DNA of 40,803 nt from a virus (Duplodnaviria > Caudoviricetes), in IMG/VR virus record IMGVR_UViG_3300048856_000136, positions 1 to 40,803 of that record; one strand, given 5' to 3'. Both the position numbers and the translations under genes were made by a program. Positions 12,270-40,803 of the stretch are shown here, piece after piece (within the stretch, counting starts at the first letter, position 1; each line of letters opens with the position of its first letter). Under the pieces are notes generated by a model. The model did not search any database. It saw only the letters and a program-made list of their open reading frames with translations, and had not been told where the DNA came from.

Positions 12270-12333
12270 ATGCCTCAATGTTTTCAGAATTTGTCAGGAG
12301 TTACTGAAAATAAATTTATGTTAATTTTTTTCA

Positions 12334-12455
12334 GTTGCTGCTAATCCCCCTAAGCGGCGGGGTGTAAATGGTCTTCATAGCTAACGCTGTGGGTAATCTT
12401 GCACAAGCCATATTGATCATTGTGTGGCTTACCGGGAGGCACCCGGGGCGGCAAC
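12334..12455 (+). ncRNA. C4/CI-like structured RNA (copy 2)
   Basis: GTTGCTGC/GCGGCAAC closing stem, AATCCCC..GGGG hairpin, and the same CCGGGAGGCACCCGG hairpin as copy 1. Confidence 0.55.
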
Positions 12456-12646
12456 TTTAACTCAGCTATGCCCTCTGAATTTTCATAATCATGGGAATTT
12501 AAGGCATGGCTGAGTTAAGCAAACTTAATTTTAATCTTTCCTAAAAGATGATTTGAACCCTGTTGCCGATGGGCAAGGTAGTTACCGCTATAGCGTCAGG
12601 TTATTTTTTCGGAAAGATGGAAAGCAGAAGTTTGTTCAGGAAAATT

Positions 12647-12716
12647 TACGGGCAGCAGGACTTGAACCTGCATCTGCAACCTGTTGGTTGTAGTAATACC
12701 TTTATACCACGCCCGT
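12647..12716 (-). pseudogene. tRNA-like element / pseudo-tRNA
   Basis: Acceptor ACGGGCG/TGCCCGT and perfect T arm GCAGG-TTCAAGT-CCTGC. Aberrant 6-nt anticodon loop, no CCA. Confidence 0.6.
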
Positions 12717-37296: not shown

Positions 37297-37779
37297 ATGC
37301 CGGAAGAAATCGAAAGCACGCAAGATGCAGTGATTCCAGAAGAAATTCAGAAAGAAGAAGCAGGCTATATGTACAGCCTGAGCGCGCGGGCGTTCTATCC
37401 GAAAGGAACTATTTCGCAGCAGCCTTATGTTGATGCCGGGAGTTTACCCGGTGACTTAACTGATATCAGCGATGAAGACTATGCGGCCTTCTTTAATCCA
37501 CCCGAAGGTTACAGCAGCGTATTCGATGAGTCTGGCCCCCATCTGGAGAAGATACCAGAACCGGATTATAAGGCTTTAGCTGACAAAGATAAGCAAGCCC
37601 TCCTAGACCAGGCTACGCAGGCGATTACCGTCTGGCAAACTAAGCTGCTTATGAGCCGCAAACTTACCGAGAAAGAGTCAGCCTCACTCAATGCATGGAT
37701 GGATTATATCGACGTGCTTAACGACACTGACTTAAGTGATGCGCCTGATGTGCAGTGGCCTGCAAAGCCTTCAAATTAG
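37297..37779 (+). CDS. tfa: Tail fibre assembly chaperone (Tfa)
   Basis: WQTKLLM..LNAWMDYID..DVQWPAKP. Confidence 0.88.
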   Translation: MPEEIESTQDAVIPEEIQKEEAGYMYSLSARAFYPKGTISQQPYVDAGSLPGDLTDISDEDYAAFFNPPEGYSSVFDESGPHLEKIPEPDYKALADKDKQALLDQATQAITVWQTKLLMSRKLTEKESASLNAWMDYIDVLNDTDLSDAPDVQWPAKPSN

Positions 37780-37926
37780 AGAAGTATCAGTCGCTCGGTT
37801 ATTACCGTTACATCTCTGCCATTTCACAGGCACGTGGCAAAAACCTTAATACACATACATAAAGCGCTAAGGATAAGAAATGGTTCTATGCTTATAGAGA
37901 TTTATCTAACCCAGACGGGAGGAACA

Positions 37927-38112
37927 ATGACTGCACATCGTGGTGGAACTGGTAACTTTGCGGAAAATCCTGAGCGTGCTAAAGAAGCGGGTAGCAAAGG
38001 CGGTAAAGTCAGTGGTGGAAATTTCAAGAATGACCCCAGGCGTGCGGTTGAAGCCGGTCGTAAAGGTGGAGCAATAAGCCGGAGAGGCAAAGTAAAGCAA
38101 CCAGAGCAATAA
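37927..38112 (+). CDS. KGG-repeat general stress protein (YciG/GsiB-like)
   Basis: HRGGTGNFAENPERAKEAGSKGG and NFKNDPRRAVEAGRKGG. GGAGG RBS, sigmaS-like CTATGCT at 37886-37892. Confidence 0.88.
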   Translation: MTAHRGGTGNFAENPERAKEAGSKGGKVSGGNFKNDPRRAVEAGRKGGAISRRGKVKQPEQ

Positions 38113-38578
38113 GAGGGTCTGGGTTAACTTTGAATCCCGTACATATTAGCCGTTTGAAATCGCGGATATGAAAAAAACCCGCGTAGGCGGGTGTGGCAAA
38201 GTTCACCAATAAATTTCATCCGTGACCCCAGTAAAGCACATGGTTAATTATTAGCCATAAAAAAGCATGGCGACCAGGCAGTGAATGTTCTGCTTCTGTC
38301 TGAGCAGGCTTACGGGGTGAGTGATTAAATATCAGGCTCTCGTAAATCAGAGAGGCAGACCGAAGAGATAAAAAAGCCCGGTATGGATACCGGGTCATCT
38401 ATTTAGATGAAAAAACACACATAACCTGCACAGCTAAACACTAAACCTTCCCTACTTCGCTTTATATTTTGTTAGAAAAGTGAAAGTCAGAATTATGCAG
38501 AGTTTTATGAGGCCATAAGAAACCCGCCATAACAGAACGTGATATCGTGATTTGGTCGAAAAGCGAGCGGGGTTGGCT

Positions 38579-38785
38579 ATGTACTCAAACGAAGCAGACG
38601 AACTCTACGAGGAGATGTGCCGCATAGTAGGCGATATGGTGTTCACGCTGCATGATTTTGGCGTTGATTCTAAACAGATGGTGATAGCAGATGCGCTGAG
38701 AACCGCGCTGGCGCATAAGGGAGAGGAAAGAACAGAATTGATGGTAAAAGCAATGGAGGCGGCGGTTCGGGTGCTGGAGCGTTAG
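38579..38785 (+). CDS. fumD: FumD/YdhZ (DUF2767)-like small protein, copy 2
   Basis: Highly similar to 3021..3224 (shared FTLHDFGV, ALAHKGEERTELM). Confidence 0.7.
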   Translation: MYSNEADELYEEMCRIVGDMVFTLHDFGVDSKQMVIADALRTALAHKGEERTELMVKAMEAAVRVLER

Positions 38786-39034
38786 TCACAAAAAAGCCCG
38801 CACATGGCGGGCAATTGGTGTGTCCTAATCTTATCGTAGGCAACACAATGCTGTGTGTTACCTGTTCAGCTTAGCTCGCAGGTGCTTATTAACTGTGAGA
38901 ATTGTCTAAATGTCATCTTCTGGTTGTGTCAGCGAGACTGAAGACAAAAAAGCCCGCTCAGGACGGGCCAACCAGTAATTTTGCTGTATGAAGTCTTATT
39001 ATAGACCTGAGGCTTGCAGTCTCGGGCACTGAAG

Positions 39035-39061
39035 TTATCGACCGTATCGCATAAACCTTGA
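39035..39061 (-). promoter_or_regulatory. sigma28 (FliA)-type promoter
   Basis: TCAAGGTT-N11-GTCGATAA. Confidence 0.65.
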
Positions 39062-39147
39062 GCGATAGACACAAAAAACCCGCGCGAGGCGGGCTTGAAA
39101 TGTAATGCCGTCGATCTTATTTGGGGTTTAATTCCCTGGTAAGACTG

Positions 39148-39174
39148 TTATCGGCATAGGTCAGTAATTCTTCA
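39148..39174 (-). promoter_or_regulatory. sigma28 (FliA)-type promoter
   Basis: TGAAGAAT-N11-GCCGATAA, perfect -10. Confidence 0.7.
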
Positions 39175-39556
39175 GGCTGAGATACAAAAAATTGAACGAG
39201 GCGGGTTAGCCTTGGATTTCAGGCAAAAAAATCCCGCATATGCGGGCGATATGACGATGATGTTTTAGTTATGCACCAGGGTAGGAGCGTAGTGACAATT
39301 TGCCATAGATGCTGTTTACATAAAATAAGCTCTTAAAATTATCAGAATTTAAGTATAAAAAACCTGCACGAGGCGGGCAAATAGGTGTCTTTATCTTGTC
39401 GTTCGCAACACTTGCTGTGTTACCGGACAATACTAATCCCCAGATTTTGATAAATAAATCACTCTGTATAGATTATGTGATGTGAGTTCTTTAGTGGTTG
39501 CTGGCGCGCAAAAAGCCGCATCTCTACGGCCTCATGTCACCCAAACGTCTCCGGCC

Positions 39557-39646
39557 CTATGAAAAGTAAAGGCCCTTTTGCAGCAATGCCTCAATCAGCA
39601 TGAGTACTACTATCGCTGCACAAATAGGAGGCAGATAAATCTTCAT
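39557..39646 (-). CDS. 29-aa hydrophobic peptide (type I toxin-like, not in ORF track)
   Basis: MKIYLPPICAAIVVLMLIEALLQKGLYFS*. AAGGGAG RBS within a CTTCCC-AA-GGGAG hairpin, terminator at 39510-39530. Confidence 0.6.
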   Translation of the reverse strand: MKIYLPPICAAIVVLMLIEALLQKGLYFS

Positions 39647-39883
39647 GTTATGCTCCCTTGGGAAGTTTCTGAGTTAGAACCAGAAGTAAACACAACTGGT
39701 TAGGCATACCTCTCTTTCGTCCACTAAAGGGGACTCATCCGTGAGGTGCTATAGTCCTGACAAACCCTGGTGTTGGTTTGTTAGATAAAATTTGGTAGCT
39801 GAAATAATAGGCGGGGGAGATGATATCACCTGTTATCCACAGGGCTTAGCTGTAAATTTATCAGGTGTCACTCTTAGAAATAC

Positions 39884-40145
39884 TCAGTCCATAAACTTAA
39901 GAGACGGATGCTCCATCCCCGCCTCAATAGCATCTACGTTACGCTGCATTTCAGTAATTAGCTTCTTTGCCATATCTAAGGATATCGACATAAGGAAATT
40001 CTTTTTCGGTTAATGCGTGCTCGGCTAGGGTATCCTTGAAAGACAGCTTGAGCACCATCAGCTGAGCCATAGAGCTGTAAATTGAACCGAATTCAACTAA
40101 ATCGCGCATTCTTCCAACATTGGGCTCTCTTTCATTTTTCATCAA
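39884..40145 (-). pseudogene. Frameshifted small gene, possibly BssS-like
   Basis: ORF 39951..40145 continues in another frame near 39985 as ISLDMAKKLITEMQRNVDAIEAGMEHPSLKFMD*. Size and pattern resemble BssS. Confidence 0.45.
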
Positions 40146-40803
40146 CAGGCTCCTCTTGTTTTAATGAAAGCTTAATTTTCTGCAATTCATCGTATCGATC
40201 ATGGAGAGATTTAGGGAAAAGCTCGGTATAAACCTGCCACAGCGTGCTAAGAGAGCGATGTCCGCTCACCTGCGCGACTTCCTCAATAGTGAATCCAGCT
40301 TCGAATAATCTACTAACTCCCTCTCTTCTCAAATCGTGATAGCGCAGATCGGAAATACCCAATTTGTTACGTTCCTGAGCAAACGTAAGGGAAATGTTTT
40401 TCGGCCTGAATGGGAAAATACATTCCTCTCGTTTGGGTTGCCTCATAACAATCTCCCAGGCATCACCAAGCAAGGCAACTTTCATATGATTACCTATCTT
40501 TTTGCGAGGATCCTTTCTGTCTCGTACAACAACCGCTTTTTGCACGTGATCTATATCTTCCCACCGAATACGGGTGACCTCGCCAACGCGCATGCATGTT
40601 AAAATTGAAAACATGAATATTTCGGAGAAAGGAATGTTTTTATATGAACTTTTTTCTCTGACTTTTAGGGCTTCAATAAGACGATCTGTTTCGTCCTGCG
40701 TTGGCCGGCGACTTCTTTTTTGAGAGGAGGTGGTCATGCGAAGCTTATTCATTTGATACTTCGCATAGCTAAAATCATCCAGCCTGACATCTACGTTGAA
40801 CAT
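40132..40803 (-). CDS. int: Tyrosine recombinase/integrase, catalytic portion (probably 5'-truncated by the window)
   Basis: TCMRVGE (R), RDRKDP (K), YHDLRRE (HxxR), SGH, and Y in WQVYT. Confidence 0.92.
   Translation of the reverse strand: MFNVDVRLDDFSYAKYQMNKLRMTTSSQKRSRRPTQDETDRLIEALKVREKSSYKNIPFSEIFMFSILTCMRVGEVTRIRWEDIDHVQKAVVVRDRKDPRKKIGNHMKVALLGDAWEIVMRQPKREECIFPFRPKNISLTFAQERNKLGISDLRYHDLRREGVSRLFEAGFTIEEVAQVSGHRSLSTLWQVYTELFPKSLHDRYDELQKIKLSLKQEEPVDEK

Follow-up and report, generated by a model that had tools for sequence, protein, structure and literature searches.

An array of predicted phage RNA cassettes with sigma28-type promoters and complementarity to the sRNAs ArcZ and RprA

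Does a temperate phage encode an RNA that is switched on with the flagellar genes of its host and directed against a host sRNA? This question is raised by a short minus-strand unit, here called D, in a 40,803-nucleotide stretch of phage DNA (the window, i.e., the whole stretch that was analysed). The preliminary description had proposed that D has a sigma28 promoter and an RNA whose 5′ end is antisense to the ArcZ seed. Promoter and ArcZ-complementary arm both stood up, while the array context had been overlooked: D is one cassette of several, and the strongest signal among them is complementarity to RprA. Our best reading of the sequence is that D would be a FliA-driven phage anti-sRNA aimed at RpoS-activating sRNAs, and not a member of the AgvB/AsxR family.

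The cassette array and the predicted unit D

The window represents a temperate lambdoid phage with repressor, replication, Q, lysis, head, and tail genes, plus the 3′ portion of an integrase gene. Because its proteins are also seen on a 215,712-bp contig, the phage is probably a prophage. The tail fibre chaperone falls in the same 90% cluster as a Pantoea sp. protein, and the capsid protein shares 89.7% identity with that of Pantoea phage AH07; based on these matches, the host is likely Pantoea, a plant-associated bacterium. In the moron region between Q and the holin gene, we observed a match to STnc100 (12305-12506, plus strand) and a tRNA-like gene (12647-12716, minus strand).

Approximately eight short promoter-RNA-terminator cassettes with related terminators lie between the tail fibre chaperone and integrase genes, all on the minus strand (Table 1). 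A search of the array units against Rfam returned no match at the gathering score, and none at E≤10 over positions 37780-40130. The integrase relatives that were examined (L052-L054) had no array.

Table 1. Features of the array region (window coordinates)
Feature	Position	Strand	Remarks
Tail fibre assembly gene	37297..37779	+	Left boundary of array
KGG-repeat stress protein gene	37834..38112	+	Left edge of array
Units G and H, non-coding	38170..38460	−	Terminators at 38394 and 38192
DUF2767 protein gene	38552..38785	+	Within array
Unit F	38789..38863	−	5′ hairpin with 10-nt RprA complement; terminator
Unit E, predicted RNA	38945..39028	−	Arm 38997-38981 against RprA seed
Second sigma28-type promoter (unit E)	39035..39061	−	Directly past D terminator
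Unit D, predicted RNA, ~70 nt	39071..39141	−	5′ arm, weakly structured body, intrinsic terminator
ArcZ-complementary 5′ arm of D	39132..39141	−	10 bp including 1 G-U
Sigma28-type promoter of unit D	39148..39174	−	Consensus match
Unit C	39184..39222	−	Degenerate terminator remnant; adjoins D
Unit B	39224..39330 (5′ end provisional)	−	Terminator-ended; ArcZ-seed-like stretch 39284-39275
Unit A	39355..39424	−	Paralogue of F; 9-nt RprA complement; imperfect terminator
12-nt ArcZ-seed complement	39765..39776	Complement on −; identical to seed on +	In hairpin loop
Integrase, 3′ part	40132..40803	−	Right boundary; cut by window end

The D promoter consists of a −35 element, TGAAGAAT (39174-39167), and a −10 element, GCCGATAA (39155-39148), on the minus strand and separated by an 11-nt spacer, precisely where the preliminary description had placed them. 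Compared with the sigma28 consensus of two octamers and an 11-bp spacer, as given in the accessible part of PMC2859248, there are three mismatches, all of which are in the −35 element, while the −10 box is perfect. Four sites with ≤3 mismatches are present in the window versus 0.26 expected, a number reached in none of 100 shuffles, and two of the four are arranged in tandem (39174 and 39061). In the aer promoter, three −35 positions are described as important, with mutation lowering activity, and the +1 lies 6 bp past the −10 box (PMC2859248, same part). The D promoter retains all three positions. Because of the aer spacing, we place the likely +1 of D at 39142-39140. The terminator stem spans 39096-39076 on the minus strand and is followed by a U tract. 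As judged from these elements, the predicted promoter-terminator unit is beyond chance.

In one RNA run (X1), a 1,197-nt contig spans 38930-40125 with no substitutions at a depth of 17.1; other listed phage pieces have depths of 2.2-11.4, and the head and tail genes are mostly uncovered. Since the data of this run and of a second one (X2) are assembled contigs that give no strand, ends, or level, and since the library may hold DNA, this coverage is not evidence of transcription. A 199-nt X2 contig matches 38219-38414 in units G and H with eight differences and, because of these differences, indicates that a relative exists elsewhere.

Two further elements were observed on the minus strand of the array region. 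A 29-aa hydrophobic ORF at 39646-39557 has a ribosome-binding-like site and its own terminator but no Pfam match; in size and hydrophobicity, we take it to be like type I toxin peptides. At 39741-39715, a stretch resembles a hammerhead core with one core change, and is without Rfam support at E≤10.

RprA complements and the wider class of sigma28-type cassettes

The arm of unit E pairs with the RprA seed over 16 of 17 nt (approximately −21.1 to −22.1 kcal/mol), and this seed is identical in five of five genomes. In the paralogous units A and F, the RprA-seed complement lies in each case in the 5′ hairpin; E. coli McaS has the same seed as the RprA stretch to which these two units are complementary. 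For A and F, we discarded an anti-GcvB (AgvB-like) interpretation because RprA and McaS rank first. Homologues of F are present in five other phage records (L115, L118 [= L104], L119, L120, and L121), where they adjoin tail-fibre or umuD-like genes, often in multiple copies. The search pattern that retrieved them contained a portion of the RprA complement; it returned 16 loci, the others being unrelated. An ArcZ complement at position 912 of L118 was not counted, as it is absent from the L119 homologue. Approximately 40 bp upstream of the F-family cassettes, a box (38895-38911 in the window) is conserved in L115, L118, L119, and L121; we take it to resemble an RcsB or CRP site.

Unit E has kin in L193, L189, L293, and L215. 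As defined here by a long RprA-complementary 3′ arm, the sigma28 anti-RprA family comprises E, L193, L189, L293, L283, and L215. L193 pairs with RprA over 17 bp and L293 scores 16.5, each of which was matched by one of 300 shuffles. Over 14 sigma28 cassettes, RprA was enriched with a z-score of 6.2 (0 of 300 shuffles), a value that is inflated because several of the 14 are relatives and not independent; the next of the 28 sRNAs reached 2.1, and ArcZ, at 0.5, was not enriched. These cassettes were hand-picked (13 representatives drawn from 46 groups, mostly with a −35 element, plus L293) without a seed in the query. D falls outside the family, with a pairing energy to RprA of −9.9 kcal/mol versus −22.1 kcal/mol for E. 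Kinship of D through model R1 was not established, as its score of 24.5 bits is inside the range of terminator-only matches (up to 29.3). Separately, L251, L193, and L292 form a further cassette family with RprA pairing scores of 10.5-14.5, and at L050:5400-5310 (minus strand), in another phage, a sigma28-type promoter located behind the repressor gene is followed directly by a 10-nt RprA complement; this element has no clear terminator.

When viral sequences were scanned for just a −10 box plus a terminator, 119 loci were identified in 38 of the collection's 64 parts. At a distance of exactly 11 bp, 94 of these loci, corresponding to 12 of 26 families, had a −35 match (≥5 of 8 positions), while spacers of 9, 10, 12, and 13 gave such a match in 0-3 families. 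Because the −35 element was recovered at 11 bp without being queried, cassettes with a predicted sigma28-type promoter, an RNA, and a terminator are evidently common in enterobacterial prophages. None of 15 representative cassettes had a match in Rfam. The commonest one in viral contigs, L173 with many near-identical loci, is also present in 4 of 5,426 E. coli genomes; it has no Rfam match, and its best partner, GcvB, is not significant. The larger finding from these comparisons is a class of sigma28-type phage cassettes with predicted complementarity to RpoS-activating sRNAs, which is best supported for RprA.

The ArcZ-complementary arm of D and its interpretation

The core of the D arm, ACCAGGGAA, lies at 39140-39132 on the minus strand. 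The nine perfect pairs with the ArcZ seed that had been described, and their position at the predicted start of the RNA, were borne out: the arm forms nine Watson-Crick pairs, or 10 with one G-U, and the match is exact in nine of nine ArcZ copies. E. coli K-12 and eight further genomes supplied these copies, none of which is that of the phage's own host. The D-ArcZ hybrid energy of −16.3 to −16.9 kcal/mol is near those of CyaR (−17.8) and of the strongest lrhA-leader site in E. coli (−17.3). Opening the free 5′ seed of processed ArcZ costs 0.1 kcal/mol; the G run of the D arm pairs weakly inside D, with an opening cost of 4.0 kcal/mol.

At least nine Watson-Crick pairs anywhere in D to any of 28 E. 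coli sRNAs were found in 946 of 3,000 shuffles (~32%). Nine pairs to any of these sRNAs inside the first 15 nt are expected in 6.6% of cases by chance, and a match to the ArcZ seed inside the same 15 nt in 0.14%. Family-wise, 90 of 150 shuffles by energy and 150 of 300 by ungapped score were as good for some sRNA, and by ungapped score, DsrA, GcvB, and MicC are level with or above ArcZ. Taken alone, the seed match of D is only suggestive. In the whole phage, the minus strand has two 9-mer complements to the ArcZ seed and two complements to the RprA seed, and all lie in the array region. The 12-nt match at 39765-39776, a length reached against any of the 28 sRNAs in 15 of 3,000 shuffles, may serve as a decoy or a target on the minus strand, or may mimic a seed on the plus strand. 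An extended −10-like box was observed near 39747-39755, upstream of the plus-strand stretch.

Two cassettes in other genomes bear on the ArcZ reading. In L296, which lies in another enterobacterial prophage within an array of terminators, a sigma28 promoter is followed directly at +1 by the identical 10 letters of D, and pairing with ArcZ extends to 12 bp. The 5′ start of L215 pairs with ArcZ over 14 bp. Each of the two holds both arms in one RNA, that for ArcZ first and an RprA-like arm farther on, and the differences between their ArcZ arms preserve the pairing, which in both reaches into ArcZ-specific letters. L215 was found without a seed in the query and L296 by a model based on E together with seven relatives, with D excluded, among 50 genomes of one genus. 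The hosts of L296 and L295, the latter with the same cassette as L215, encode FliA and an ArcZ with the same seed. With ≤1 mismatch, an ARN4 motif is present in L296 and L215 and in none of A, D, E, and F.

A 5′ ArcZ arm occurs in 2 of 17 distinct sigma28 cassettes (159 loci) versus a null mean of 0.06, and 1 of 300 shuffled sets did as well, a figure that overstates the case because L215 and L296 belong to one family, and thus count as one event, and because L215 was in the alignment of the model that found L296. The exact D arm was found in 9 of 20,000 shuffled sets. L193, L210, L218, and E have no ArcZ arm. Outside the arm, D has no resemblance to L296 (z-score of −1.1), and the arm may either be all that survives of a homologue whose remainder has diverged, or have arisen by convergence. 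Because both readings point to it, we suggest that the arm is under selection. The ArcZ reading is likely, but the case for it depends on one outside family.

No full-length homologue of D was found in the phage records, plasmids, and E. coli genomes searched, nor by blastn in 401 genomes with two candidates scored per genome. A pattern search of the 401 genomes returned 28 places in 24 genomes, mostly coding and none in a promoter-terminator cassette. In viral contigs, D-like patterns gave 12 loci, all attributable to chance, and nine loci, none D-like, while a third pattern gave only L215; in metagenome contigs, three loci were returned, none D-like. The 50 genomes contained only L215-type cassettes and L296. 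The centred genome searches reached groups other than Pantoea.

Other elements with ArcZ complements were noted. At L055:1501-1584 (minus strand) and in L060, a 15-nt perfect complement to the ArcZ seed precedes an A-rich run and a terminator; this element, found with an ArcZ-based pattern, lies between STnc100 and the holin gene in two lambdoid prophages. In L301, L317, L321, and L311 (at approximately position 1500), all from one genus, a terminator-ended element has an ArcZ complement of up to 12 nt, in L321 together with a 9-nt RprA complement. It has no Rfam match, is located between the same chromosomal genes in L301, L317, and L321, and is a candidate chromosomal sponge.

How the arm would function can be read in several ways. 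D could be a target of ArcZ rather than a sponge, in which case ArcZ would trigger decay of D and thereby confine D to motile, low-ArcZ cells, and the job of D would lie elsewhere. In agreement with this possibility, ArcZ can destroy a paired sRNA, CyaR, while remaining unharmed itself (PMC11331407), and the direction is not readable from sequence. However, apart from the arm, D has no conserved stretch that could serve as a seed, the arm is at the extreme 5′ end as in AgvB and AsxR, and the long RprA complements of the neighbouring units fit an array of decoys. We regard this explanation as unlikely.

Similarly unlikely, and if anything slightly more so, is that D is an ordinary trans-acting sRNA with mRNA targets or a partner of the phage's own ArcZ-seed-like RNAs, i.e., unit B and the plus-strand 39765-39776 stretch. 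D pairs over 8 bp with each of these (−14.3 and −14.4 kcal/mol, respectively), and the seed-like stretch of B is kept in L121. ArcZ nevertheless pairs better (10 bp, −16.9 kcal/mol), and the arm grows to 12-14 bp with ArcZ in L296 and L215. Four E. coli regions were compared with D, namely rpoS/nlpD, flhD, lrhA, and csgD, and in these D had no strong site (best ungapped score, 9.5).

We give a little less weight again to the explanation that D arose by duplication of the anti-RprA cassette E and has since decayed, in which case the ArcZ match would be due to chance or an effectless leftover. The four nearest of 17 units to D are E, L218, L210, and L215 (z-scores of 2.2-2.8), the pairing of D with RprA is weak, the degenerate unit C adjoins D, and the family-wise P value of D is 0.5-0.6. 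A perfect −10 box, an intact terminator, and an arm that is unchanged to the letter in L296 despite a diverged body all speak against decay.

Finally, SdsR or DsrA, each of which has a portion of the seed in common with ArcZ, is very improbable as the intended partner. In favour of this reading, the similarity of SdsR that had been noted does result in pairing, with eight Watson-Crick pairs versus nine with ArcZ, and D and DsrA form 11 pairs including two G-U. Against it, the arms of L215 and L296 reach into ArcZ-specific letters. DsrA is probably absent from Pantoea. On balance, and with somewhat better than even confidence, we favour the reading that D is a sigma28-promoted, AgvB-like decoy RNA that would occupy the ArcZ seed.

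Proposed role and relation to known systems

If D acts as a decoy, both D and E would be transcribed through FliA while the host is motile and its flagellar genes are on. D would pair with the 5′ seed that is free in processed ArcZ, acting by sequestration and Hfq binding, and E, with A and F predicted to act likewise, would occupy the RprA seed. In motile cells, the joint effect of D and E would be reduced activity of ArcZ and RprA and thus less RpoS translation, as well as relief of lrhA/flhDC-type targets from repression, resulting in more LrhA-type regulator. Repression of lrhA and activation of rpoS are described for ArcZ as well as for RprA (PMC10578931). The lrhA leader of E. coli has its best ArcZ site ~40 nt ahead of its best RprA site, an order shared by L215 and L296, and D and E may represent the two arms of such an RNA split over a tandem pair. 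Because ArcZ lowers motility in E. coli (PMC11331407) and raises it in Erwinia amylovora (PMC13123061), according to the parts of these reports at hand, the sign of the effect of D on motility is not callable.

Any link to defence is speculative. In Serratia, the LrhA homologue PigU represses CRISPR-Cas; deletion of rprA was without effect there, and PigU controls arcZ and not the reverse, as far as the accessible text of PMC10810281 goes. In E. coli, LrhA is reported to promote CRISPR (PMC12968389).

AgvB and AsxR (EcOnc01-03) are prophage anti-sRNAs of E. coli O157:H7 (PMC4104026, in the part available). Like these, D would be a short, terminator-ended lambdoid-prophage RNA whose 5′ region is complementary to the seed of a core sRNA. 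AgvB and AsxR, however, are 51-60 nt long versus ~70 nt for D, and target GcvB or FnrS, while the array of D is predicted to address ArcZ and RprA from tandem units with sigma28 promoters (PMC4104026, same part). The ~42-nt 3′ scaffold of their family was unmatched in the array with Rfam models, both at the gathering score and at E≤10. As far as described, they lie behind the Q-antiterminated PR′ in convergent pairs, in contrast to the one-stranded array between tail fibre chaperone and integrase.

D shares a sigma28-type (FliA) promoter, in its case a predicted one, with the sigma28-dependent sRNAs UhpU, MotR, FliX, and FlgO; these are described in the accessible text of PMC10578931 as UTR-derived, chromosomal, and acting on mRNAs, whereas D and E would be free-standing phage cassettes with complements to sRNAs. 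CyaR also pairs with the ArcZ seed at a similar energy, but is chromosomal, CRP-controlled, and destroyed by ArcZ, while D is phage-borne (PMC11331407, in part). The RbsD mRNA sponge is likewise a decoy against RpoS-activating sRNAs and lowers RpoS via DsrA/ArcZ; however, in the portion of the preprint available (bioRxiv 10.1101/2023.08.28.555190), it is a chromosomal, ribose-induced mRNA that acts mainly on DsrA, and not a phage RNA. The Pas sRNAs, STnc100, StxS, and Esr41 resemble the array RNAs in being prophage-encoded and clustered (10.64898/2026.05.13.724894; PMC8550237; PMC12197685), and StxS and Esr41 touch RpoS and motility (PMC8550237; PMC12197685). In the accessible parts of these sources, they act on mRNAs or are without assigned function, and the array units, for which the Pas sRNAs were compared by description only, have no Rfam match.

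In the literature searched, with most subscription papers and supplements lying outside, we found no FliA-dependent prophage sRNA, anti-RprA RNA, or phage ArcZ sponge; published lists of Pantoea and Erwinia sRNAs may contain the array RNAs unnamed. AgvB and AsxR are the only phage anti-sRNAs tested in the literature surveyed. Because the ArcZ and RprA seeds are the same in all copies compared, the cassette predictions are testable in E. coli K-12.

More broadly, and tentatively, with slightly less than even confidence, the sequence comparisons suggest that widespread, unannotated FliA-driven prophage decoys in shuffled arrays mimic sites in the lrhA and rpoS leaders and would neutralize ArcZ and RprA singly, as proposed for D and E, or jointly, as proposed for L215 and L296. 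Such decoys would couple host swimming to the RpoS/LrhA network, of which motility, biofilm, and possibly CRISPR control linked to LrhA are part. If this is true, temperate phages would tune the enterobacterial switch between motility and stress with modular RNA cassettes.
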